Shown here piece after piece: positions 7,712 through 46,306 of a DNA stretch of 58,891 nt. The translations under genes and the position numbers were made by a program. The notes beneath the pieces are model-generated. The model was not told the origin of the DNA, made no database searches, and saw nothing but the letters and a program-made list of their open reading frames with translations. This DNA comes from a bacterium (GTDB lineage: Bacteria; JACRDZ01; JAQUKH01): NCBI GenBank assembly GCA_028719205.1, contig JAQUKH010000012.1:1-58891 (forward strand). Direction: 5' to 3'. Within the stretch, counting starts at the first letter, position 1; each line of letters begins with the position of its first letter.

Positions 7712-8011
7712 ATGAATTATTCTTTTCACCCGGAAGCTGAAAAAGAGCTGCTTGAAGCTATTAATTATTATAATGAATGCCAAGATAAACTTGGTATAGA
7801 ATTTGCCAAAGAAACTTATAAATCAATTCAAAATATCCTTTTATTCCCCAAAGCGTGGGCTCCTCTTTCCTCAAATACCAGAAGATATCTTATAAATCGA
7901 TTTCCGTATGGAGTAATATATCAAATAACTGAAAAAGAAATATACATAATTGCAATAATGCAATTAAGCAGAAAACCAAATTATTGGGAAAATAGAGAAA
8001 AATATAAATAA
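7712..8011 (+). CDS. RelE/ParE family toxin
   Basis: FHPEAEKELLEAINYY...RFPYGVIY...IIAIMQLSRKPNYW. Confidence 0.9.
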   Translation: MNYSFHPEAEKELLEAINYYNECQDKLGIEFAKETYKSIQNILLFPKAWAPLSSNTRRYLINRFPYGVIYQITEKEIYIIAIMQLSRKPNYWENREKYK

Positions 8012-8545: not shown

Positions 8546-8818
8546 ATGAATTTTGAATGGGATAAGAATAAAAGTGAAATTAACAAAGATAAACATGGCA
8601 TCGCTTTCAAAACTGCAATGGATATTTGGACAGATGAAAACAGTATAGAGATCCATGCTTCACATCCGATAGAGAATAGACGGATCATTATCGGAAAACT
8701 TCAAAATAAATTATGGACCGCAATATATACAATGCGAAACGATATTGTCCGTATAATTTCAGTAAGACGTGCCAGAAATAAGGAGAAGCAATTATATGAT
8801 AAAGAAAAAACTAGCTAA
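8546..8818 (+). CDS. BrnT family ribonuclease toxin
   Basis: MNFEWDKNKSEINKDKHGIAF...RIISVRRA. Confidence 0.92.
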   Translation: MNFEWDKNKSEINKDKHGIAFKTAMDIWTDENSIEIHASHPIENRRIIIGKLQNKLWTAIYTMRNDIVRIISVRRARNKEKQLYDKEKTS

Positions 8819-9078: not shown

Positions 9079-9172
9079 TTACTTCGCCCGTTCAATATAT
9101 TTTTCTGTTCTTGTATCAATTTTAACCAGTTCTCCTTCATTTATAAGAAGGGAACGCTTACGGTCATGCCTG
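9079..9172 (-). pseudogene. Relic copy of efp 3' end
   Basis: Aligns to efp from 19721; encodes [29 protein letters not shown] with one frameshift and mostly synonymous changes. Confidence 0.9.
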
Positions 9173-12387: not shown

Positions 12388-12458
12388 ACCCAACATTATT
12401 TTGCGCCTGACTGATGTTCCGCTGCGCTCCACACCAGCAGATGAAAATTGCGTTAGAT
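12388..12458 (+). repeat. attC site
   Basis: ACCCAAC (RYYYAAC) ... CTGATGT..CCGCTGCGCTCC..ACACCAG ... GTTAGAT (GTTRRRY); 71 bp imperfect palindrome after the MTase gene. Confidence 0.75.
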
Positions 12459-12486
12459 TGAATTAAATAAGGGATTATGCTATAAT
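12458..12486 (+). promoter_or_regulatory. Near-consensus sigma70 promoter
   Basis: TTGAAT-17-TATAAT with extended TG. Confidence 0.75.
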
Positions 12487-12492
12487 GTAAAT

Positions 12493-12602
12493 ACATGGCA
12501 AAGAAGAGTTTGGAGCTCTTCTCCCGAAAAGTTGTAAGTCACTCAAAGTTTTGGAGACTAAGAGTGTGCGCTCTTTTGACTTAGTCGGTGCCATGTTTTT
12601 TT
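12493..12602 (+). ncRNA. Candidate structured small RNA
   Basis: Begins ~7 nt after the -10 box; closing stem ACATGGCA/TGCCATGT, two AAGAGT..GCTCTT hairpins, ends in T-tract. Confidence 0.45.
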
Positions 12603-13347
12603 ATTCTTCAATTTCCATTTCTATAAATTCTAAGTATTTCCTTATTTTTTGAATATCTTTTTTACTAATCTTTCCAGGTAGTTTTATTAGGGCCATTCCT
12701 TCGGATAGAGGGAAAGAATGTTGATGTTGGCCCTTTATTATTTCATTTTCTAATTTATCAGTCAATATTTCTTTATTGTCAGTAATTCCAACTAAATTGC
12801 TTTCTTCTGTTTTCTCTAAGCTATTTACTTCTGAATCATCATTTAATGATATTAATATTTTTCCTTCTTCATTAAATGCTTTTGCATAAACACCTGATTC
12901 TTTAAATATTTGAGCAGCTGTTTTAGCGGCGCTCTCTGTTATATTATATTTACGATGCAAAATTGTTTCAATATTTTTTGGAAGAATAGTGCCTTGTTCA
13001 AATTCATTTAATAATTCAAAATAAATATTTGGCCTTTTAAACGCTTCTAGTAATTCAACATTCTTTTCATTATCTGATAAAGGATCTGTTATTTTTAATG
13101 CACTATCTGCTATTGAATAATAATTAACCTTTTTTTTAACTAAGAGTCCAAATTGAATTAGCGCAGAAATTTTTGATAAAAATATTCCACAAATGTCTTT
13201 ATACCCAAGAGCTTTAGCAAATGTCACTTTATCATGTTCCCCTTTTCCAATCGCTTGTTTTATCTTAATAATGCTTTGGATACATTCTTCAAGATTGATT
13301 CTTGGATAAGATCGACTCCGTTCTCTTTTTATTTTTATTTCTTCCAT
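12601..13347 (-). CDS. Hypothetical protein, possible N-terminal winged-helix DNA-binding domain
   Basis: GGAGGT RBS before ATG 13347; SRSYPRINLEECI...AKALGY...KISALIQFGLL pattern; inverted relative to neighbours. Confidence 0.7.
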   Translation of the reverse strand: MEEIKIKRERSRSYPRINLEECIQSIIKIKQAIGKGEHDKVTFAKALGYKDICGIFLSKISALIQFGLLVKKKVNYYSIADSALKITDPLSDNEKNVELLEAFKRPNIYFELLNEFEQGTILPKNIETILHRKYNITESAAKTAAQIFKESGVYAKAFNEEGKILISLNDDSEVNSLEKTEESNLVGITDNKEILTDKLENEIIKGQHQHSFPLSEGMALIKLPGKISKKDIQKIRKYLEFIEMEIEE

Positions 13348-13387
13348 TTTAAATACCTCCATTATTAATTTTGATTATCATGGGGAT

Positions 13388-13416
13388 ATAATATCAGATT
13401 AAAATGGTTATGTCAA
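13388..13416 (-). promoter_or_regulatory. Sigma70 promoter of the inverted gene
   Basis: Minus strand TTGACA-17-TATTAT with extended TG. Confidence 0.7.
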
Positions 13417-13539
13417 GAGATTATTTTATATTTAGCCAAGCTTATTTCTAGGTTAATTATATAGTGGGCTGATTTATGGACTTAAATTCAATAAAAATCC
13501 ATCGACAAACAAAAAGAAAAGATATAAAATAAATTAAGA

Positions 13540-13597
13540 TTTTAACAACAGCACTACAGGCGACGGCTTACAGCCGCGGCTGATTTTATCGTTAGGC
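13540..13597 (+). repeat. attC-like site
   Basis: TTTTAAC ... CGGCT-TAC-AGCCG hairpin ... GTTAGGC; 58 bp; next gene starts 32 nt later. Confidence 0.7.
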
Positions 13598-14483: not shown

Positions 14484-14675
14484 ATGTCAAATAGTAAAAT
14501 CACCGCAATTTTAAAAAAATATCAAAAAGCTTCCCGCAATAGCAAATCACGCCGGGATTATTTTAGTTTATTTGAGAAAAAGATGTTATATCGTACAACC
14601 AAAACGGAAAATCCGCAAACAACCATGGGTATGGTCAATAAAGTTTTAGATAAATTGTCGACAAAAGCCTTATGA
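14484..14675 (+). CDS. Fic antitoxin (FicA/VbhA-like)
   Basis: Small ORF overlapping fic start; carries inhibitory (S/T)xxxE(G/N) motif TTKTEN. Confidence 0.7.
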   Translation: MSNSKITAILKKYQKASRNSKSRRDYFSLFEKKMLYRTTKTENPQTTMGMVNKVLDKLSTKAL

Positions 14676-15295
14676 AAAAGGAAATAGGCGAAACAAGCTA
14701 TAAGGAAACAGCTTTCGGCATTATTCCACGGTCAAAATTGATTCCTCTGGAAATTGAAGGAACTAAAAGAGCATGGGATTTTGTTATCGATCAATTTAGT
14801 AAAAATAAAATCAATATAACACCCGCCTTTATTCAACAAGTACATAAAATCGGCTTTGATTGGATATTTCCGGCATTGGGTGGCAGGTTTAGAAAAATTG
14901 ATGTTACTGTTTCAAAACATATTCCTCCGAAATTCTATCTTATCCCTCAGTTGATGACTGATTTCACGAAGGACCTTAAAATTAGATTAAAATATTTACC
15001 CAAAATAGATAATCCAAATTTTATTAGTGAACTAACCGCACTTCTAGCATGGACTCATCATAGATTCTTATGGATTCATCCGTTTCAAGATTATAACGGG
15101 CGAATTGGCAGACTATTGAACAACATCGTCCTATTGAACCAAAATCTGCCTCCAATTGAATTAAAAGTAGAAACGCTATCCGGCAGAAAAAAATATGTTG
15201 GAGCTTTACAAAAAGCTGACGGTGGCGATTATGGCAATTTAGAAAAATTAATTCGATCAGCAATTGAAGAATCAATAAAAGAAATTCAAAAGTAA
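14672..15295 (+). CDS. Fic family protein
   Basis: HPFQDYNGRIGR Fic motif. Confidence 0.93.
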   Translation: MKKEIGETSYKETAFGIIPRSKLIPLEIEGTKRAWDFVIDQFSKNKINITPAFIQQVHKIGFDWIFPALGGRFRKIDVTVSKHIPPKFYLIPQLMTDFTKDLKIRLKYLPKIDNPNFISELTALLAWTHHRFLWIHPFQDYNGRIGRLLNNIVLLNQNLPPIELKVETLSGRKKYVGALQKADGGDYGNLEKLIRSAIEESIKEIQK

Positions 15296-15303
15296 TTAGA
15301 AAC

Positions 15304-15362
15304 TGTCAACAATTCAATGCACTGGACGGGCAGTAGCCCGCCTCTGATTTCTGGTGTTAGGC
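15304..15362 (+). repeat. attC-like site
   Basis: TGTCAAC ... CGGGC-AGTA-GCCCG hairpin ... GTTAGGC; 59 bp, 8 nt after the fic stop. Confidence 0.7.
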
Positions 15363-16329: not shown

Positions 16330-16531
16330 ATAATATTTAGGAGATATTATGTTATACGTTATTTATGAAGAAAAAAATGAAAGTGTTCCACTACATCCGG
16401 ATTTATTTTTATTGGTGGATTTTTAAAGATCTGGAATGATGCTGTTTCTTTAACACACAAAGTGAATGTTCCTGAACAAATTTTAGGAATAAAGAATGAT
16501 TTAAAAGAAAACTCAATTGATTTGTATGGAT

Positions 16532-18016
16532 ATGAATAAATTAATAAAATATTTTGAAAGCATTCCAGCATGTTTAAAACATGAAGAAAAATATCCTGTT
16601 AAAGATCTTTTAATATGGATGTTTAAAAATGGAGAAATAAAAAAACGGCTATTAATAACATTTGGAATTCTGGTTGTTTCATGGATATTATCTTCTATCC
16701 CTTTACCCGGCATTGATTTAGTAGTTTTCCAAAGTTTTTATAAAGGAACAATAAATGGTAATTCAATAATTGCAATGTTTATGGGAACTTATAGAAGAAT
16801 GTCAATCTGTTCGGTGGGTTTAATGCCACTTATTAATTCGTGCCTGATAATACAAATATTATCATCTGTAATACCACCGCTAAGAAAATTATCTTTTGGG
16901 GGAGAAACAGGCAGAGAACGCATCTCCAAATATACATATATTTTAACCATAATACTTACTGTTATCCAAACATATTACATTACTTTATGGCTTGAGTCAT
17001 TAAAATCATCAGCTGGGAATATAGTCCAAAATCCGGGTTTGGGGTTTAAAATAGTTTGTATTATTACTGTGTTAGCTTCAGTAATGTTTATGCTTTTCAC
17101 CGCAAATCTTATTAATCAATTTGGGATTGGAAACGGTTTTGTGCTTATACTTCTTTTCCCTTTAATTATTGAGAATGTTTCACATGGTTTATTATGGCCC
17201 TTAAAAAAAACAAATTATACTGATAATATAACAATGTTAAGAATAATATTTTTCATTGCTTCTATTATAATAACTTATGGAATGTTTTATTTTACAAGAA
17301 TGGCAAAAAGCATAAAGATCAAAAGAGAAAACTTTGCTGCCATTTCGATCCTGTTCCGGCCTACCTTTATAGGAGGGATGCCTGTATTATTAGCTTCAAC
17401 TATTCTTACCAGATCTGATATGTTAACATCTTTTTTAAAAAATAACCCTATACAGATAGAATATAATTCAATTAGTTGGATTATATTCAAGTGTATTTTG
17501 GTTTTTGTTTTAACATATGTATATATTCTGGTTGTTTTTAGCAGCGATAGTTTACAAAAACAAATGGGAAAATATGGATATGATCTTGTTGACAATGAAA
17601 ATAAACCAGCAGATGATTATTTTCTGGAAATTCTTTCAAAAGTTATGTTTGCAACAGCAATGTTTCTTATCATATTAAATTTAATTCCCGATATATCCAG
17701 AAAAATATTTACGCAATTCTATTTAGGGATATCAGTATTTTCGATATTTGTCATTATTTTTTCAGATACTCTGGACCAACTTATATTTTATAAGGATAAA
17801 GAAAATTCCGGGACAAAAGATTGGAGTATTTGTTATACCGCTTTTGATGAAATAGACGCGGAAATAAAAAAGGGATATTTAAGGGATAAGGGTTTTCCTG
17901 CGCTTGTTAAGCCATACCGTTATTCCTGGGGTATGCCGATAAGGACTATTATTGATCAGTATCAGATATATGTCCCCTCTGAAATGAAAGATAATGCGAG
18001 AAATTTAATAATATGA
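16532..18016 (+). CDS. Divergent SecY-like membrane protein with C-terminal DUF2007-like domain
   Basis: KRLLITFGIL..IPLPGID, SICSVGLMPLINSCLIIQIL, GGETGRERI, GIGNG, GGMPVLLAS (SecY TM pattern); C-terminal DEIDAEIKKGYLRDKGF...IYVP...ARNLI; start uncertain. Confidence 0.75.
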   Translation: MNKLIKYFESIPACLKHEEKYPVKDLLIWMFKNGEIKKRLLITFGILVVSWILSSIPLPGIDLVVFQSFYKGTINGNSIIAMFMGTYRRMSICSVGLMPLINSCLIIQILSSVIPPLRKLSFGGETGRERISKYTYILTIILTVIQTYYITLWLESLKSSAGNIVQNPGLGFKIVCIITVLASVMFMLFTANLINQFGIGNGFVLILLFPLIIENVSHGLLWPLKKTNYTDNITMLRIIFFIASIIITYGMFYFTRMAKSIKIKRENFAAISILFRPTFIGGMPVLLASTILTRSDMLTSFLKNNPIQIEYNSISWIIFKCILVFVLTYVYILVVFSSDSLQKQMGKYGYDLVDNENKPADDYFLEILSKVMFATAMFLIILNLIPDISRKIFTQFYLGISVFSIFVIIFSDTLDQLIFYKDKENSGTKDWSICYTAFDEIDAEIKKGYLRDKGFPALVKPYRYSWGMPIRTIIDQYQIYVPSEMKDNARNLII

Positions 18017-18723
18017 AAAACAAAATTATTTTAATATATCTTTTGCCGATACTTTTCCTGGGCTGCTCTTCTGATTCAGTCGTTTCTCGCAAACGACAAT
18101 ATAATGAAGAACCCTTGTTCGGTAATATCGAAAAAACTGATTATCAAAAACAAGCCGATACTCGATTTATTCAAGAAGTTATAACGGAATCCGGCAATAA
18201 AGAAGCTGCTACCGGCAATACACTGAAAAGTGCCTGGAATTATTACTATAAAGGTGACTACTCATTGGCTATGAAAAGGTTTAACCAAGCTTGGCTGCTC
18301 GATAATAATAATGCTGAGGTTTTCTGGGGTTTTGGTTTAATAATGGGGATAAGGGCATGGAGTGAAAACCCGGGAAAAAACTTAAGTGAATCCATAAAGT
18401 TTTTAGAAAAGGCAAATGAGTTGTTTAAAGATAATCCTAATCTGCTGATAGATCTCGCTCATTCCGAAATAATGCTGGGGAATTTTTTAAAAGATAATAA
18501 GAGGGAAGAATTCCAAAACCATTTTGATAAAGCGAGAAGTTTATTCCAAAAATCGGAAGGATTAAATAAAAATATCCCTTTACTTTATTTAAATTGGTCA
18601 CTTTTGGAATTCTTTGAAAAAAAATATGCAGAGGCTAAAGTTAAATTAGATATTGCAAAGAAAATGGGATTTAAACCGGATCTTAACTATGAAAAAGATC
18701 TGGAAAAACATTTAAAAAAATAG
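18013..18723 (+). CDS. TPR-repeat lipoprotein
   Basis: Lipobox FLGC; AMKRFNQAWLLD.NNAEVFWGFG TPR motif; ATG overlaps the secY-like stop. Confidence 0.8.
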   Translation: MKNKIILIYLLPILFLGCSSDSVVSRKRQYNEEPLFGNIEKTDYQKQADTRFIQEVITESGNKEAATGNTLKSAWNYYYKGDYSLAMKRFNQAWLLDNNNAEVFWGFGLIMGIRAWSENPGKNLSESIKFLEKANELFKDNPNLLIDLAHSEIMLGNFLKDNKREEFQNHFDKARSLFQKSEGLNKNIPLLYLNWSLLEFFEKKYAEAKVKLDIAKKMGFKPDLNYEKDLEKHLKK

Positions 18724-18869
18724 CTATTTTGCCCGTTCTATATATTTTTCTGTCCTTGTATCAATTTTAACGAGTTCCACTTCATTGATAAAGAACGGGA
18801 CGCTTACGGTTATTCCTGTTTCGAGTTTCGCGGGTTTTCCGCTTCCGGATACGGTGTCTCCCTTGAATG
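18724..18869 (-). pseudogene. 146-bp duplicate of efp 3' end
   Basis: Colinear with 19721-19866; few, mostly synonymous differences. Confidence 0.95.
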
Positions 18870-18928
18870 TCAGGGACATTGGTTTCTAGTGATACTAACT
18901 ATAAACAAAAAAATAAAAATAGCCAGGA

Positions 18929-19720: not shown

Positions 19721-20281
19721 TTATTTCGCCCGTTCTATATATTTTTCCGTCCTTGTGTCAATTTTAACGAGCTCGCCTTCATTGATAAAGAACGGGACGC
19801 TTACGGTTATTCCTGTTTCGAGTTTCGCGGGTTTTCCGCTTCCGGATACGGTGTCTCCCTTGAATGACGGGTCAGTTTCGATCACTTTTAATATGACCGA
19901 GGCCGCCATATCTACTCCTATAGGCTTTTCTTCAAAGAAAACTATTTTTACCGTTTGATTTTCCGTAAGGAATTTCCACGTGTCGCCGGTCTGCTCTTTT
20001 CTTAATTCAATCTGTTCAAAAGTATCATTGCTCATAAAAGTAAAAGTGTCGCCTGATTTGTATAAAAACTGTACTTCTCTTTCTTCATAATCTGGTTCCG
20101 GGAATTTTTCACCGGCCTTGAAGGTCCTTTCTATCACGCTTCCATCACTAAGATTTTTTAATTTAGTCCACACTACCGCCTTGCGCATCGCGGTTTTATT
20201 GTGCTGGAAATCAACAATTTCAAATATCTTATTTTCAATCCCTAACTTTTTACCTTTTGAAAAATCAGCTGTATCGATCAT
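19721..20281 (-). CDS. efp: Translation elongation factor P
   Basis: [36 protein letters not shown]; loop is KTAMRK rather than KPGKG. Confidence 0.95.
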   Translation of the reverse strand: MIDTADFSKGKKLGIENKIFEIVDFQHNKTAMRKAVVWTKLKNLSDGSVIERTFKAGEKFPEPDYEEREVQFLYKSGDTFTFMSNDTFEQIELRKEQTGDTWKFLTENQTVKIVFFEEKPIGVDMAASVILKVIETDPSFKGDTVSGSGKPAKLETGITVSVPFFINEGELVKIDTRTEKYIERAK

Positions 20282-38725: not shown

Positions 38726-41700
38726 ATGCAAAAATTAAATCGGATTCGTATAATACTTTTTTCTTTTTCAATACTATTAATTTTTGTATATATTCCTTTT
38801 ACTTTTGCCCAGGAACAGCAAAAACCGCAAGAATCGCAAGAACCTCAAAAAGCTCAAGAGCCTCAAAAAGTTCAAGAACCTCAAAAAGCTCAAGAGCCTC
38901 AAAAACCGCAGGAACAAGGCCAGGCAGCAGTTAAAGAAGAACCTGTAGCACTTGAAAAACAGGATATCTCAAATGAAGAATGCGTTAAATGCCATTTTGA
39001 AGAGGATCCAAATCTGAAGGCCGGTTTGGGCTCGGATATTATTACATATAAGGGTGAAAAATATGTAGCGGATGAGATGATGTGTTATAGTTGTCATGAT
39101 GGTTCGACTCTGGATGACCGGTCTGTCCGGTGGCAGGGGATGCAGCATCCTATGGGGATGAAACCTTCTGAAAAGGTAATTATACCCCCGAAATTCCCGC
39201 TTACAAAAGACGGTAAACTATATTGCGGCTCATGTCATACCCCTCATGCTGTTCAAGGTTCAAGCAACCTTCGGAAAGAGACAGTTAATTCTTCTTATTG
39301 TGAGTTATGCCATGTAAAATTAAGCCAGGGAAAGAAAACAGGTGATCATCCTGTTAAAGTTGTTTTTAGCAAAAAGCTTCCTAAGGAACTTGCCGGGACA
39401 AACGCCAAGATATCTTTATCTGATAAACCGGGTGAAGAAGGTAAACCGATCCTGATATGCCAGACTTGCCATGTTGTTCACGGCGCGCCTAAGGGAACCG
39501 AGAAATTACTTGTAATAACAAAAAAAGAGGGAGGAGTTTCAGGCCCGCAGCTTTGTGAAATTTGCCATGACAATAATCCAAGCAGAGGTGAATATAAGTA
39601 TGGTACAACAAGCCATTCTATAGATGTTATCCCGAGCGAGGGGAGTAAAATTCCTGATGAATGGGAACCCGGGAAGAAAAGTGTAAAAGGCGATAATGGA
39701 AGATTAACCTGCAGAACCTGCCACACACCGCATTTCGCGGCAAAAGAATCTGCCATGCTTGTTATTGATAACAAAAAAGGAGCGTTTTGTCAGAAATGCC
39801 ATACAAAGTACAGGGGAGAGGGAATAAAGGAGAAAAATACCGGCGCGCATCCTGATATGATAAAGCCAAAAGAGGATATGAAAATTACCAAAGTTGTCGC
39901 GTCCCGCCTGGAAGAAGGTATGGTGACCTGCAATACATGCCATACAAATCACAATTCAGCTGAAAATAAATTTCCGGGAAATCCAAAAGCATTATTAGTA
40001 AGTAATAATGATAATTCCAATTTTTGTAAAAGTTGCCACGAGAATGATTTCAGCATAAGCAAACAAGATGCTGAAGAAAAAGGCAACCATCCTGTCGGGA
40101 TTAAAACCGAAAAAGTTAAGTATTTACCAATTTTAAAGATCTCTGAGTTAGGCGGCAGGTTAAGCAATGAAAATCAGGTTGTTTGTAATAGTTGCCATAG
40201 AACGCATGGCGGAGTAAAGGGGACAGGAAATCTTCTTGCCACTACTGATGACGGTAAATTATGCGGATATTGCCATCAGGATTATGGGATAGAGGGTTTG
40301 GATTTTCGTGTAAAAATGATAGATACCACCAAACTTGATTTATTAAGGAAGGGTTATAATTCCTCGGAAATTATGATTGAAAAAGAGGATGTTCATATTG
40401 ATTATAGTAAAGTAGTTCCCGCGTCTTCGCATCCCATTAATCGCACATCGGAATTTGTAAAAATAAATAAAGATATTCTGGATGCCGGCGGCAAATTGGA
40501 TAAAGATAATAAAATTATTTGCCATACGTGCCATAAATCACATGGCGCGTATAAAAATACCGCTAATTTGGTTATGGAAAATAGTAATTCCGGTTTTTGC
40601 CGGAAATGCCACAAGGATAAAGAGCCTGTATTAAATAGTGAGCATAGTTTAGTTAAGATCGCGCCGTCTGATAAAAATATTTATGGAAAGACGCAGGCTG
40701 AAAGCGGTATTTGCGGAATCTGCCATGTGGCTCACGGCGGAACAGTAACCACAATGTTTAGCCGTGAAATTGATACAACCTTAAACGATCCGGTGTCTGA
40801 GATGTGTCTCAGCTGCCATACAAAAGGGAAGAATGGAGAGAAAAAACCGGTCGGCGAGTACCGGCATAGCACTAATATCGCTATAGAAGAGACGAACCGT
40901 AAAGAAACATCACTGCCCTTGTATGATAAATTAGGCAAGATCATACGGGTTGCCCCTAAGACTATAAACAAAGAAGGATTTGTTACATGCGGATCATGTC
41001 ACAATGTCCACCAATGGGATCCTCTGGATTCAAGCAAGGGAAGTGTTGAAAATCAGGAAGGTGGAAGTAACAATAGTTTTTTACGTATGGTTTATAATAA
41101 AAAAGAATATAAATTCTGCGGAGAATGCCATATTGGATATGAGGCTGTTGAAGGAACAGAACACGATCTAAGGGTAACAGCCCCTAAGGAGAAAAATAGC
41201 AGGGGTGAAACAGCTGAAGAAAGCGGGGTTTGCGAGAGCTGTCATTATATACACAACGGCAATCAGGCAAACATTTGGGCTAAGGAAGTAAAAGGAGATG
41301 CTGATAATGTAACACTTTTATGCCGTGAGAGCTGTCATTGGCAGGGAAAATCCGGAGAAAAAAAATTAACAGGAAAAAATTCTCATAGTGTTTTTGTCAG
41401 TATGAAATTTACGGACGGGGAAACGTTATTACCTCTTTATGACAGCAGCGGAAGAGCTGTTAAAGGTAAAAGAAAAGAGGAAAGAAAAAATGAGCTTTTA
41501 GTAACCTGCGGAAGCTGTCATAATGTTCATCAATGGGACCCTGAAGATTCAACTGCCGGCAGGGATAAGAAAAACATTGAAGGGACCCGTTTAAATAGTT
41601 TTTTAAGAATAAAAGATAAAGAGGAATCAGAATTATGCATGGATTGTCACGCTAATAAACCTACTTCCCGTACGGAACATGATATGCGCGTTGTGGCTAA

Positions 41701-44700
41701 AGATGAGAAAAATATCCTGAAGCAAAATACATCAGAGAGCGGTATTTGCGGCGCGTGCCATATAGTGCACAACGCGAAAGATACGATCCTCTGGTCCAAA
41801 GAGTTGGATACAACTACAGGAAAAGGCGGGGCGATCACAAGAGAATGTGAAAGCTGTCATATGGAAAAGAAGTGCGGTGAAAAGAAATTGATCGGTAAGA
41901 TAACACATCCTATAGATTGCGGGCTCCCGGGATATGAGGTGGTTCCGACTTTGCCTTTATACAGCGATTCGGGTAAAAGAATGTGGCCGAAAGAAAATGA
42001 AAAAAATATATATGGGAATGTGACTTGCGCTTCCTGCCACGACTCGCATCAATGGGATCCGAATGATACCTCAAAAGGCCGTGATAATAAAAATGAAGAA
42101 GGAAATGTGTCAAATAGTTTTCTTCGCATGAGAGATGATTCTACCTCCGTTCTTTGCGGGAATTGCCATGTTGAAAATGTATTAATTCTTAATACTGAAC
42201 ATGACCTGAATGTTTCCGCGCCGAAATCGGTTAATGTTATCAGGCAGACTGTTAAAGAATCAGGGACTTGCGGGGCCTGTCATTTGATCCATAACGGGCT
42301 GGAGTTAAAACTTTGGGCAAGAGTGCCGGTAATTGTCGAGGGTGATCTTATAGCGACTCTTTGTTTCAGCTGTCATTCTGCCGGAAATTGCGCGGAGAAA
42401 AAACAAACAGGCAAATTTTCCCATCCGACAGGCATATCAATTTTTGAAGCAGGATTAACTACAAGCCTTCCGCTTTTTACTCAGGATATAGAAAAGCGGG
42501 TAGATGGTAAAATGTATTGCAATACATGCCATAGTGTCCATCAATGGACTCCGTCTTTTCGCGGGTCCGGCCCAGGTGTTAATACAGAGGGAGACGGGAC
42601 AAATAGTTTTTTAAGGCTGCGTAATGATAAAGAATCTACCCTTTGCCTTGACTGTCATCAGTTGGAAGCGTTAATGGTCAACACGGATCACGATCTGTCG
42701 GTAACAATTCCCAACGAACAAAATATTAATAAAGAAGTAGTAGCTCAATCCGGTTCCTGTTCGGCTTGTCATCTTCCTCATAACGGCGGTGAAGGCCAGA
42801 GATGGGCTAAGCCGTTAGGGCCCGGGGATGACCTCGTGACTAAACAGTGCCAGAGTTGCCATTATGAAGGCAAGATCGCGGGAACAAAGGTGGGCACGCA
42901 TAGCCATCCTATTAACGTAACGATCTCAAAAAAAGATATGTCAACTTCATTACCTTTATATACCATAGATGGTAAAGTAGATAATGTAGAAGGCGGGATA
43001 AGCTGCCTTACCTGTCATTTTGTCCATCAGTGGAGCCCGAATCAGTTTGAAAAACAAGACCGGGCGTCAGGTATTTTTGATGTAGAAAATATTAAAAGTA
43101 AGATCATGGGAAAGATAGTTCATGTTTCGGAAAAATTTTCATATATTGATCCGACAGGTTATCCGGCAAGCAGGGAACTTAATGAAGGAGAGATCCTTTC
43201 AATTGTAAAAAAGAAAAAGATAGCCGCGAAACTAAAAGTTGAGAAGGTAAATCCTTTCTCAGCAAACTTCAAGATTTTCGCCCAAACCCTTTCCATAGAT
43301 GAAGATGTTGTTCTGGAAGTCGGAGATGAGGTTTTGGACGACCGGCAAATGCAAAAAGGCCTGGAAGGAGACGGAAGAAATAGTTTTTTAAGAAAAGATA
43401 ACGGTATATCAACCGCGTTATGTATGGATTGTCATTATAAATATATTGGGACAATAGGAACGGATCATGACCTGTCAGTGACTTTTCCGACCGCGAAAAA
43501 CGCTGCAGGGTATACTGTTTTTGAATCCGGTATTTGTTCTTCCTGTCACCTGGCTCACGGAGGTACCGGACGTTCAATTGCGGCACAAGCATTAACTGTC
43601 GGACAGCCGGACAAAGAAGATTTACCTGTTTTTAAACCCCTTTGCTACGCGTGTCATCGTGACTCCGGCGGAATGGCTGACCAAAAGAAAATTTCCGTGC
43701 ATCATAAAATTTTTAAATATCCGGAATACAGTAAAATGGTTGTTATTCCTACATTTCCCTTCCCTTTCTATACTAAAGATGACCTGCTTTGGAAAGGAAA
43801 GGATGATATGTATATGAGTTGCGCTACCTGTCATGACCCTCACCAGTGGGATCCTGAAAAGAAAAACAGCCGTCATCCGATTGATCCAAAGACCGGGAAA
43901 TATGTAGTAAAAGTTGAAGGTGATGATACCAACAGTTTTTTAAGAATGCGTAATGATAAGTGGCAATTATGCAATAGCTGCCATACCTCTGAGGTTCATT
44001 TACAGGCAGAAGAAATGTTAAAAAGCGTGGGCCTTTGGCAAAATCTTGGGACAACTGCTGTTATGGGTACAGGAGAACCAGAGACGACAACAGTTGCTTT
44101 ATCCTCAACTTTGGTTAACAAGACAGTTGAGAATATAGCTTTATCAGCAATAGATGCTACCAATGTCAATTTAAAAAACGACACAACAAGTGTTGTTAAT
44201 GTTAGTTTAAAAAGTGATACCGGTATAGTTATGGATACTGCTTTAGCAGTAAAAGATACCGCCAATGTCAGTTTTAAAAAAGACACGACAAGTATTGTTA
44301 ATGTTAGTTTGAAAAGTGATACCGGTATAGTTATGAATACAGCTTTAGCAGCGATAGATACCGCTAAAATCAGTTTAAAAAGTGATACCGGTGTAGCCGC
44401 GGATACCGCTTTAGCAGCAATAGATACCACTAATGTCAGTTTAAAAAGTGATACCGGTATAGCTGCGGATACAGCTAATATTACAGAGTTGCAGGATACA
44501 ACCTTAGGCCCTTCTCCTGAGGAATTAGCACTTCAGGAGAAACCAAAGGTTATAGCGTACAGATATGAGCGTCCAATCCGTATTTCAAAAGATTTTCGTA
44601 TCAGTATTACCTTTAGTGAAATGCTGAATATTAATATTACTCCCAAGATCACATTAATCAGTGATGGAAAGAGGTCTCCGGTAGTTCCTGACACAGGCGG

Positions 44701-46306
44701 AACTTTTGGCACAAGTGAATTTGAGAACGATACTTATATAACTCCCCCGATTGCGATGGAAGAAGACATGGGAGGCAATATTACTATTGTTGTTGAGAAG
44801 GCAGAGGGTGTTGTTGAGAATGTAATGGATGTTACCGCGGAGCATACTTTCTTTTTTGATACCAGGCCCGAGACGCTGGAATTTTACAGGACCGCGAAGC
44901 TTACTGTGAAAGAGGGAAGTTACACCCTTTCTCCGGAAATAACTCTTTTAATGGAAGCAAAAGGCGCAATGAAAGTTCTGATCAGCGAAGATCCCGGTTT
45001 TAAAGACGCGACATGGATGAATTTTAAACCGGAAAATAAATTTATGCTTTCTAAAGGGGATGGAGAAAAGCTGATCTATGTTAAATATAGAAAGGGTGAT
45101 GAGCTTGAAACGGCTCCTATAAATGTAAAGGTTGTTTTGACAGGCGCAAAGAACGAAAGTGAACTTCGCGGAACAATTACTGACAATATAAGATTGACTG
45201 CCGCAGGCAGCCCGTATATTGTCCGCGGGCAGGTAAATCTACCTGCCGGTTTTTCTATGACGATTGAACAGGGAGTAAAGGTTTTGTTTGATGACTTAAG
45301 TTACAGCCAGAAGCAGAACGAAAAGGGAAAGTTAATTATTGAGGGGAATCTTACCGTTCGCGGAACAACAAGTATTCCTGTAATATTTACATCACGTAAA
45401 GAAAATCCCGCGCCAGGGGATTGGGAAGGTATTTCTATTATTCGTTCTAAAGCCCTAAGTGCACTTGAAGGATTCATCCTGAATTATTCTAAAAACGGAA
45501 TTTATCTGGAAGCGGCAATATTCCTGATAAAAAATGGAAGTATTGAAAAATGTTCCGAGTCCGGAGTTGTTTGCGCTGACCGTTCTGACGGCAGAATTAC
45601 AGAATGTTCTATAATGGAAAATAACTTTGGGGTATCGGTTCGACAATCTAATCCTGTAATTAATAAAAATACAATTTTAAAGAATAAAATAGGGATAACA
45701 TCTAAAGCGGTTTCTAAACCTAAGATAGCTACCAATACCATTAAATTTAATGAGATCGGGATAAATTGTGAAGAAATATCCAGCCCATGGATCCTGGATA
45801 ATTTAATCTCTGAAAATAGTAGAGGTATCCGGTGCGCGATTTACTCACCGCCAATTATAGCTAATAATGAAATAACAAAAAACAGCGAGTCAGGGATCTA
45901 TATAGATGAAGCATGCCCGATGGTCTTTAAAAATATAATAAAAGAAAATAAGGTCGGTATTCAAATTGAGAACGATTATCGTAAATTCCTGATAAGTTAT
46001 AATAACATAACAAATAATATCGATTACGCCGTTAAAATGGATAAATATATTATGCAGGTTAACGCGATTGATAATTACTGGGGAGCTGAAAAACGAGAGA
46101 TAATTTCGAAATTAATTTATGACGGGAATTCAATTAAAGAAGAAGTAAAAGTTGAAAAAGAGGTCGTAAAAGAAACTTTTACTATGTTTTCGGCGGAAGA
46201 AAAAGAAGAACTGCCGGAAGAAGAGAAAAAAGTTAAACTGGGTTTGGTAAAATATCTTCCGTATCAGATTGAGCCGATAAAGGATGCCGGCATATCAACA
46301 GAATAG
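38726..46306 (+). CDS. Giant multiheme cytochrome c (37 CxxCH + 1 CxxxCH) with DT-rich stalk and C-terminal beta-helix
   Basis: Signal peptide, manual motif count, six HQW..NSFLR repeat modules, C-terminal domain similar to the 34858-35772 protein. Confidence 0.93.
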   Translation: MQKLNRIRIILFSFSILLIFVYIPFTFAQEQQKPQESQEPQKAQEPQKVQEPQKAQEPQKPQEQGQAAVKEEPVALEKQDISNEECVKCHFEEDPNLKAGLGSDIITYKGEKYVADEMMCYSCHDGSTLDDRSVRWQGMQHPMGMKPSEKVIIPPKFPLTKDGKLYCGSCHTPHAVQGSSNLRKETVNSSYCELCHVKLSQGKKTGDHPVKVVFSKKLPKELAGTNAKISLSDKPGEEGKPILICQTCHVVHGAPKGTEKLLVITKKEGGVSGPQLCEICHDNNPSRGEYKYGTTSHSIDVIPSEGSKIPDEWEPGKKSVKGDNGRLTCRTCHTPHFAAKESAMLVIDNKKGAFCQKCHTKYRGEGIKEKNTGAHPDMIKPKEDMKITKVVASRLEEGMVTCNTCHTNHNSAENKFPGNPKALLVSNNDNSNFCKSCHENDFSISKQDAEEKGNHPVGIKTEKVKYLPILKISELGGRLSNENQVVCNSCHRTHGGVKGTGNLLATTDDGKLCGYCHQDYGIEGLDFRVKMIDTTKLDLLRKGYNSSEIMIEKEDVHIDYSKVVPASSHPINRTSEFVKINKDILDAGGKLDKDNKIICHTCHKSHGAYKNTANLVMENSNSGFCRKCHKDKEPVLNSEHSLVKIAPSDKNIYGKTQAESGICGICHVAHGGTVTTMFSREIDTTLNDPVSEMCLSCHTKGKNGEKKPVGEYRHSTNIAIEETNRKETSLPLYDKLGKIIRVAPKTINKEGFVTCGSCHNVHQWDPLDSSKGSVENQEGGSNNSFLRMVYNKKEYKFCGECHIGYEAVEGTEHDLRVTAPKEKNSRGETAEESGVCESCHYIHNGNQANIWAKEVKGDADNVTLLCRESCHWQGKSGEKKLTGKNSHSVFVSMKFTDGETLLPLYDSSGRAVKGKRKEERKNELLVTCGSCHNVHQWDPEDSTAGRDKKNIEGTRLNSFLRIKDKEESELCMDCHANKPTSRTEHDMRVVAKDEKNILKQNTSESGICGACHIVHNAKDTILWSKELDTTTGKGGAITRECESCHMEKKCGEKKLIGKITHPIDCGLPGYEVVPTLPLYSDSGKRMWPKENEKNIYGNVTCASCHDSHQWDPNDTSKGRDNKNEEGNVSNSFLRMRDDSTSVLCGNCHVENVLILNTEHDLNVSAPKSVNVIRQTVKESGTCGACHLIHNGLELKLWARVPVIVEGDLIATLCFSCHSAGNCAEKKQTGKFSHPTGISIFEAGLTTSLPLFTQDIEKRVDGKMYCNTCHSVHQWTPSFRGSGPGVNTEGDGTNSFLRLRNDKESTLCLDCHQLEALMVNTDHDLSVTIPNEQNINKEVVAQSGSCSACHLPHNGGEGQRWAKPLGPGDDLVTKQCQSCHYEGKIAGTKVGTHSHPINVTISKKDMSTSLPLYTIDGKVDNVEGGISCLTCHFVHQWSPNQFEKQDRASGIFDVENIKSKIMGKIVHVSEKFSYIDPTGYPASRELNEGEILSIVKKKKIAAKLKVEKVNPFSANFKIFAQTLSIDEDVVLEVGDEVLDDRQMQKGLEGDGRNSFLRKDNGISTALCMDCHYKYIGTIGTDHDLSVTFPTAKNAAGYTVFESGICSSCHLAHGGTGRSIAAQALTVGQPDKEDLPVFKPLCYACHRDSGGMADQKKISVHHKIFKYPEYSKMVVIPTFPFPFYTKDDLLWKGKDDMYMSCATCHDPHQWDPEKKNSRHPIDPKTGKYVVKVEGDDTNSFLRMRNDKWQLCNSCHTSEVHLQAEEMLKSVGLWQNLGTTAVMGTGEPETTTVALSSTLVNKTVENIALSAIDATNVNLKNDTTSVVNVSLKSDTGIVMDTALAVKDTANVSFKKDTTSIVNVSLKSDTGIVMNTALAAIDTAKISLKSDTGVAADTALAAIDTTNVSLKSDTGIAADTANITELQDTTLGPSPEELALQEKPKVIAYRYERPIRISKDFRISITFSEMLNINITPKITLISDGKRSPVVPDTGGTFGTSEFENDTYITPPIAMEEDMGGNITIVVEKAEGVVENVMDVTAEHTFFFDTRPETLEFYRTAKLTVKEGSYTLSPEITLLMEAKGAMKVLISEDPGFKDATWMNFKPENKFMLSKGDGEKLIYVKYRKGDELETAPINVKVVLTGAKNESELRGTITDNIRLTAAGSPYIVRGQVNLPAGFSMTIEQGVKVLFDDLSYSQKQNEKGKLIIEGNLTVRGTTSIPVIFTSRKENPAPGDWEGISIIRSKALSALEGFILNYSKNGIYLEAAIFLIKNGSIEKCSESGVVCADRSDGRITECSIMENNFGVSVRQSNPVINKNTILKNKIGITSKAVSKPKIATNTIKFNEIGINCEEISSPWILDNLISENSRGIRCAIYSPPIIANNEITKNSESGIYIDEACPMVFKNIIKENKVGIQIENDYRKFLISYNNITNNIDYAVKMDKYIMQVNAIDNYWGAEKREIISKLIYDGNSIKEEVKVEKEVVKETFTMFSAEEKEELPEEEKKVKLGLVKYLPYQIEPIKDAGISTE
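38837..38905 (+). repeat. 18-bp coding tandem repeat (QEPQK[A/V])
   Basis: CAAGA(A/G)CCTCAAAAAG(C/T)T about four times. Confidence 0.85.
44137..44480 (+). repeat. Coding repeat array (ALAAIDT.NVSLKSDTG)
   Basis: Recurrent AGTTTAAAAAGTGATACCGGT and GCTTTAGCAGC units. Confidence 0.85.

Follow-up and report, generated by a model that had tools for sequence, protein, structure and literature searches.

A conserved structured element at the 3' end of a winged-helix gene in a predicted integron cassette: a candidate cis-antisense RNA

A structured element of about 105 nt, found beside members of the same protein family in two distant hosts, may well be two things at once: a new cis-antisense small RNA gene and, on the other strand, the 3' untranslated region (3' UTR) of a convergent winged-helix gene, the pair forming a mobile two-part module. 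As for novelty, comparison of the two sequences makes a new RNA family of two members a well-supported conclusion, and the kind of RNA itself, cis-antisense RNA, is a familiar one.

The window, i.e., the whole stretch of 58,891 nt that was analysed, is contig C12 of a 68-contig genome that is 92.66% complete and was found in landfill metagenome runs. A sequence-only reading had drawn attention to a promoter and a small structured transcript near position 12,500, and this observation is confirmed. That reading took the RNA to be free-standing, a description that is revised here: the RNA is bound to the convergent gene, whose stop codon (TAA, 12601-12603, minus strand) lies inside the RNA's T-run.

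The promoter-like site and the predicted fold

The promoter that had been described, TTGAAT and TATAAT 17 nt apart with an extended TG, is present (Table 1), and the promoter scan lists it at 10 of 12 positions with TG. As also described, it stands directly after an attC: the bases before it fold as an imperfect, attC-like palindrome whose core shares its final base with the -35 box. Such sites are rare in this genome. Over 2.59 Mb and both strands, 191 sites reach at least 10/12 plus TG, and 82 of them have a perfect TATAAT. Under a slightly stricter definition, 102 of 175 sites fall outside ORFs of at least 120 aa, i.e., in 9.3% of the genome, which is an approximately six-fold enrichment, and 95 of the 175 are followed at 5-300 nt by the start of a long ORF on the same strand. 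Because of the enrichment outside long ORFs, motifs of the sigma-70 type are meaningful in this organism. The window holds four strong TG-promoter-like sites, and two of these are the convergent pair of a single cassette, located at 12453-13591. Three DNA contig runs over 12441-12581 returned the source contig alone, with zero variants.

Both strands of the stretch 12486-12602 fold well. The + strand has a predicted energy of -35.3 kcal/mol (z -3.43), the - strand one of -32.6 kcal/mol (z -4.57), and in each case none of 200 shuffles was as good. On the + strand, the 8-bp closing stem and the terminal T-run of the earlier description are both found; the stem, P1, spans ~90 nt, and no terminator was called at this place when the window was scanned. 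Inside P1, two TTTGGAG loops lie ~40 nt apart. The remark that the RNA matches no recognised family also stands, given that Rfam 15, which holds the GadY family, was searched with the whole window and gave no match at the gathering thresholds (GadY, ctRNA and Rsm/Csr included). The best local match, to ctRNA_pT181, scored 19.9 bits against a threshold of 56 (E 4.8).

Table 1. Features in and around the cassette (positions in the window)
Feature	Position	Strand	Details
attC-like site ending the upstream cassette	12388..12458	+	ACCCAAC ... GTTAGAT; constrained fold scan
Promoter-like site	12458..12486	+	-35 TTGAAT 12458-12463; 17-nt spacer; extended TG 12478-12479 (TGc); -10 TATAAT 12481-12486
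Predicted ~105-110-nt RNA; same bases are the 3' UTR of the minus-strand gene	12493..12602	+	fold and alignment
Closing stem P1, 8 bp	12493-12500 with 12589-12596	+	ACATGGCA with TGCCATGT
29-codon ORF (MAKKSLELF...)	12495..12584	+	ORF list; judged not to be the selected feature
Hairpin P2	12502..12522	+	AGAAGAG 12502-12508; loop TTTGGAG 12509-12515; CTCTTCT 12516-12522
Hairpin P3	12540..12566	+	CACTC 12540-12544 with GAGTG 12562-12566; inner pairs 12547-12548 with 12558-12559; TTTTGGAG 12549-12556
T7 run	12596-12602	+	after P1
Convergent 248-aa gene (253 aa from the upstream ATG at 13362)	12601..13347	-	tandem winged-helix protein, unnamed family
Promoter-like site of the 248-aa gene	13388..13416	-	TTGACA-17-TATTAT with TG, 11/12
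attC-like site closing the cassette	13540..13597	+	TTTTAAC ... GTTAGGC; constrained fold scan
Third attC-like site	15304-15362		imperfect palindrome with core boxes

The cassette and the convergent winged-helix gene

The cassette that holds the element measures 1139 bp and lies between two attC-like sites of the form RYYYAAC ... GTTRRRY, an imperfect palindrome. An integron integrase is encoded in the same genome (419 bits against an NCBIfam cut-off of 265), on contig C35, a different contig from the window. With attC-like bounds and a genomic integrase both at hand, the stretch reads as an integron gene cassette. The module fills it, with a promoter-like site at each end, and its G+C content is 29%, compared with 38% for the window. 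An 11-nt inverted repeat near the cassette ends (12457-12467, ATTGAATTAAA; 13482-13492, TTAAATTCAAT) was considered as a further feature and dropped, being absent from the second locus.

The 248-aa product of the convergent gene belongs to no Pfam, NCBIfam or PADLOC family. A word-index search with it found one relative, and 1728 representatives came up at E <= 0.001 in an exhaustive HMMER search, with 13 of them at E <= 1e-30; the closest proteins are P0002 (Logan) and P0003 and P0004 (both JGI). Of 60 relatives, 15 show weak matches to winged-helix Pfam families. A sequence search of the PDB yielded noise only, Foldseek with the AlphaFold model gave nothing at E <= 0.001, and the Atlas search led to unnamed clusters only. 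The AlphaFold model, built from 60 relatives (mean pLDDT 88.3), has two winged-helix-like units, a disordered linker at residues 175-204 and a C-terminal beta-hairpin followed by a helix. In a wide VIA structure search with residues 13-176, the matches were the DNA-recognition domain of FokI (Z 9.6), N.BspD6I (Z 8.7), an uncharacterised protein (Z 8.4) and BrxA (Z 8.2), a range of 8.2-9.6 that the tool itself rates as middling. The product is read as a predicted nucleic-acid-binding protein.

The position of the gene has a direct consequence for the element. Because the T-run overlaps the stop codon and the element starts only 4-5 nt after it, the element must also be the 3' UTR of the mRNA of this gene.

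A second copy of the element

When metagenome contigs were scanned with two relatives at 48% identity, one locus emerged: L024, a contig of 2131 bp. It contains the 3'-terminal 145 codons of a related gene, whose product is 46.5% identical to the window protein over 144 aligned codons, and 4 nt after the stop codon of this gene a homologous element begins (4-5 nt across both loci). Here the element sits between the winged-helix gene and a convergent gene of 126 aa that adjoins obg, and by reading of the contig sequence no attC-like site was seen beside it. The Obg fragment is only 53% identical to the Obg of the window's genome, so the two hosts are distant. The module of L024 has a G+C content of 36.8% compared with 46.4% for the rest of the contig; it is compositionally foreign (AT-rich) in both hosts.

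The two elements are identical in 77 of 115 aligned columns (67%). In the coding DNA beside them, identity is 57% overall and 40% at third codon positions, so the element is under selection at least as strong as that acting on the protein. RNAalifold finds three common helices on the + strand, P1, P2 and P3. In this comparison of one pair of sequences, the two copies present in all the DNA searched, 24 of 24 consensus pairs form in both copies, and seven of them are changed on both sides (one in P1, four in P2 and two in P3, the latter being the inner pairs of that hairpin). When the 3' partners were slid by 1-3 columns as a control, 0-1 both-side changes and 31-52% pairing were left, and 5 of 500 column shuffles reached the observed covariation values. 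Despite the changed stems, both loci have exactly the same loops, TTTGGAG and TTTTGGAG, and the closing stem is again followed on the + strand by T7, kept exactly.

Upstream, the antisense strand of L024 carries TTGCTT-17-TATACT, which ends 7 nt before P1 (6 nt in the window). The TTG of the -35 box and five of the six -10 positions are kept, and the 17-nt spacers are unrelated. By hand count this in-register site scores 8/12, and it is absent from the promoter scan listing, which instead has an overlapping TTGTCT-16-TAAAAT, at 9/12, located 9 nt further upstream. The homology between the window and L024 stops at the -35 box in both loci, which suggests that promoter, RNA and gene travel together.

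How does the structure first described fare against this comparison? A conserved element of ~105 nt, its fold and the place of its promoter are all upheld by L024, as are the closing stem and the T-run, and the check that had been proposed, covariation downstream of homologues of the neighbouring gene, came out in favour of pairing, with seven compensatory pairs and a shifted peptide frame. Three of the five pairings first listed do not survive a hand reading of the alignment, although each is present in the window: the second look-alike hairpin, AAGAGT/GCTCTT, is not maintained in L024 and competes with the conserved P3; TCTCC/GGAGA keeps three of five pairs, with two broken; and GACTAAG/CTTAGTC keeps three of seven, with four broken. 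The alignment places the conserved core in P1, P2 and a hairpin missing from the earlier list, namely CACTC...TTTTGGAG...GAGTG.

Search for further copies

Further copies were sought by sequence, by pattern, by covariance model and by way of the protein. An exact 32-mer of the element has no match in genome contigs, blastn of the element against plasmids found none, and blastn of 40 relatives returned noise only. A loose two-loop pattern gave at least 120 matches, and among the matches listed (121 loci, hmmsearch) L024 alone encodes the protein family; a tighter pattern gave six matches in genome contigs, none with P1 or the protein, and none in viral contigs. The covariance model R1, run on 149 relatives and the own genome, recovered the own copy alone, the best other match having an E of 0.026 per genome. 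In one genome, four copies of a ~93-nt element (G024:C1 at 807960, 847014, 875845 and 1016135; L155-L158) each score ~21 bits to the covariance model; these are probably an unrelated repeated structured element.

Protein-guided locus scans yielded no locus in genome and viral contigs and L024 alone in metagenome contigs, and tblastn of the protein against plasmids and phages found none. A profile search of 401 plus 30 genomes detected relatives of the N-terminal domain only, besides full-length ones in G340, G418 and G407. These three full-length relatives are distant, and the element is absent beside their genes. In G340, two tandem gene copies are followed by what is, by hand reading, a plain terminator hairpin; in G418 and G407, a small ORF follows the winged-helix gene on the same strand. 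Since no further copy was found and the distant full-length relatives come without the element, the RNA appears to be confined to one sub-branch of the protein family.

This small ORF, at 2248-2500 of L151 (G418) and in the matching stretch of L152 (G407), is conserved, very basic and ~42 aa long, with no Pfam match. The motif GGTGGGCGCCGACCC follows the stop in both loci, and its reverse complement recurs after the small ORF in L151.

A proposed mechanism and its alternatives

If the element is indeed both an antisense RNA and a 3' UTR, a mechanism can be sketched. The + strand transcript would start at the base of P1, show the same UUUGGAG loop on two hairpins and end at the U7 run that overlaps the stop codon of the protein gene. 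The mRNA of that gene has no room to terminate before the element, so its 3' UTR would be the exact complement of the RNA, with CUCCAAA loops. The two RNAs would meet by loop-loop contact and then form a duplex over the entire 3' UTR, and this duplex would set the stability or the 3'-end formation of the winged-helix mRNA. Pairing of the two RNAs in the cell, and its effect on the protein, is what we infer from this arrangement. The promoter points to transcription of the + strand: a cis-antisense small RNA is expected to have its own promoter on the opposite strand, reading into the 3' region of its target, and the sequence, which is the evidence here, contains such a promoter-like site. Two observations sit less easily with the proposal. 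P1 closes a branched structure of ~90 nt, which is unusual for an intrinsic terminator, and the identity of the loops between the loci hints at a further partner, protein or trans-RNA, because a purely cis-antisense pair needs no loop constancy between loci.

Which of the two strands, then, carries the selected fold? It may be that of the mRNA, because the gene-sense strand gives the fuller consensus (33 pairs, all formed in both loci, eight of them changed on both sides) and z-scores slightly better than those of the + strand in both loci (-4.57 in the window and -4.84 in L024). Four one-sided changes stay paired only as G-U on the gene-sense strand; on the + strand, one such change is kept as G-U and one U-G is invariant. 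It is accordingly conceivable, if on the unlikely side, that only the gene-sense strand matters, as a folded 3' UTR that is also the terminator of the winged-helix mRNA and protects the 3' end, terminates in both directions between convergent genes or offers a site to a regulator, the opposite promoter-like site being incidental to AT-rich DNA. The element begins so close after the stop codon in both loci that the mRNA has to contain it, both loci lie between convergent genes, and the L024 scan rates the sense-strand P2 hairpin with its T-run as terminator-like. What speaks for an antisense transcript is the conservation on its own side: the promoter hexamers, still 17 nt apart, stand at an unchanged distance from P1 while the spacers have become unrelated, and the T7 run is kept exactly, whereas the T-run on the sense side is T5 in L024 and a weak TATTTAC in the window. 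Moreover, neither a length of ~100 nt nor invariant loops would be required of a plain terminator. The simplest reading would be that both strands are made, one as the 3' UTR and terminator of the mRNA and the other as a complementary RNA of ~105 nt. Could the element instead have no RNA function at all, being a chance similarity or a signal at the DNA level such as a single-strand recombination or binding site? The two strands fold equally well, as a DNA hairpin would, and the element adjoins attC sites, which act as folded single strands. Yet it has no attC core boxes, its L024 counterpart has no attC-like site beside it, and its identity of 67%, accompanied by 7-8 compensatory pairs, greatly exceeds the 40% at third codon positions, all of which makes such an account very improbable.

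Two further possibilities concern the loops and the small reading frame. Rather than by antisense pairing, the RNA might act through its two identical loops (UUUGGAG / CUCCAAA), as part of an RNA-protein module of the toxin-antitoxin or decoy kind; the loops would be bound by a protein, e.g., a dimer of the neighbouring winged-helix protein, or would pair in trans with Shine-Dalgarno or anti-Shine-Dalgarno sequences. The invariance of the loops amid changed stems and their distance of ~40 nt agree with this, as do the self-contained build of the module, with two promoters and reversed in an array that also holds ParE, BrnT and Fic genes, and the resemblance of the first ~170 residues of the protein to tandem winged-helix nucleic-acid-recognition domains. 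Binding is predicted at most, however, from structure matches with middling Z values, and no toxin or defence match was found for the protein in PADLOC, Pfam or NCBIfam. A CsrA/Rsm sponge, suggested by two GGA-containing loops, was rejected: no CsrA gene (PF02599) occurs in the 92.66%-complete genome, and control genomes were positive. Neither strand is more complementary to the 5' region of the gene than shuffles are (fractions 0.45 and 0.16). Taken together, we consider action through the loops unlikely. In a bolder and slightly less probable version, the pair would be a selfish or defence module, in which an RNA antitoxin or decoy for a DNA-binding effector holds the protein or its mRNA in check through the UUUGGAG/CUCCAAA loops and which spreads between distant phyla, as a cassette and otherwise. 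As for the reading frame, the 29-codon leaderless ORF of the sequence-only reading does exist, and at both loci the predicted transcript reaches the ATG after 2 nt. The counterpart in L024 is open for 27 codons and agrees with the window's frame in seven of the first 12 residues. That the element encodes a small, basic, leaderless protein of 27-29 residues is nonetheless the least credible of these accounts. A 1-nt indel at alignment column 42 shifts the L024 frame after codon 12, so the conserved nucleotides of the second half are read in different frames and identity beyond that residue is zero. The replacements in the first 12 residues (A to P, K to G, S to G, L to P, S to P) map to co-varying stem positions, the ATG itself sits within P1, and the peptide has no Pfam match. 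Between peptide and pairing, it is the pairing that L024 has kept. On the other strand, the frame is 39 codons long in the window and, by hand reading, six in L024.

Relation to known systems and significance

The arrangement recalls GadY/gadX of Escherichia coli. GadY is cis-encoded and acts in the cleavage and stabilisation of the gadX mRNA, and it is counted among the short antisense RNAs of 100-300 nt in the review PMC5415839. Like the RNA proposed here, it is a short RNA placed tail-to-tail with the gene of a DNA-binding regulator and complementary to its 3' UTR. No similarity in sequence or model links the two, given the Rfam search without a match; and unlike GadY, the present RNA would cover the entire 3' UTR up to the stop codon, has a long-range closing stem and appears mobile together with the gene.

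The type I antitoxin RNAs of the pairs SR4/bsrG, SR6/yonT and RatA/txpA overlap their partners at the 3' end and lie on mobile DNA, and the toxin of a type I pair is a hydrophobic membrane peptide of small size (under ~60 aa). Our element shares with them the convergent layout and, as proposed above, the overlap at the 3' ends, an antisense RNA of ~100 nt and a first contact via loops. According to PMC3834814, the terminator loop of SR4 meets loop 3 of the bsrG mRNA, and PMC5848175 describes SR6 as an antisense RNA of 100 nt that overlaps the 3' end of yonT. The partner in the cassette is of a different nature, i.e., a soluble winged-helix protein of 248 aa rather than a small hydrophobic peptide. 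A type I toxin-antitoxin system was thus set aside, the modelled partner combining tandem winged helices with a beta-hairpin and a helix, and toxicity of the protein is suggested by no library match (Pfam, NCBIfam, PADLOC).

An intrinsic terminator that works in both directions would be a compact, G+C-rich hairpin with a U-run right after it on either strand. The element resembles one in that, at both loci, a palindromic stem stands between an A-run and a T-run where two genes converge. The difference lies in the three-helix structure of ~100 nt, the invariant loops and the promoter reading in.

RNAs and promoters inside gene cassettes have also been reported. In the review PMC8876359, sRNA-Xcc1 is an integron-encoded, trans-acting small RNA, and ORF-less cassettes of oral Treponema carry sigma-70-like promoters; they have in common with the present case a non-coding RNA or a promoter inside a gene cassette. 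Unlike the ORF-less cassettes, the present one combines the RNA with a protein gene in reverse orientation, and in L024 this combination stands outside any cassette. The comparison of the element with sRNA-Xcc1 and the RNAs of ORF-less cassettes was made through Rfam only.

What would such an RNA gene offer? Very few integron-borne RNAs have been described, PMC8876359 naming sRNA-Xcc1 and the promoter-bearing ORF-less cassettes, and cassette arrays are usually annotated for proteins only. Here, a covariation-supported candidate RNA gene appears to move with a protein of a large unnamed family, the 1728 representatives mentioned above. We know of no function for this family, and the RNA may provide a handle on the control of the winged-helix protein. 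The cassette is small and self-contained and has two sigma-70-type promoters, so that the proposal is directly testable in a laboratory strain. If the loops served to bind a protein and were not simply a consequence of antisense pairing, the pair would constitute a new RNA-protein module.

Other features of the window

The stretch that contains the attC-like sites also holds a ParE-toxin ORF (7712-8011), a BrnT-toxin gene (8546-8818) and a Fic/DOC gene (14672-15295). Three copies of one sequence, 87-95% alike, lie at 9080-9146, 18725-18874 and 19722-19871, and the last of them forms the 3' end of the EF-P gene (19721-20281, minus strand). The pattern resembles a repeated duplication of the efp 3' end, as left by site-specific insertions, and it brackets an accessory region with the cassettes. 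Within that region there are intergenic direct repeats without the attC form, of 42-84 nt and 85-98% alike (14336-14419/18902-18985, 7120-7161/9173-9214 and 7277-7320/9215-9258), and at 16517-18016 an ORF of 499 aa that matches the SecY family of Pfam (E 1.6e-35), may encode a second SecY of accessory kind and is followed by a TPR protein (18013-18723). Further along, a 2526-aa ORF (38726-46306) has many internal DNA repeats, with a 9-nt tandem array at 38810-38917; by hand reading, its repeated TGC..TGCCAT stretches code for Cys-x-x-Cys-His, as in multihaem cytochromes.
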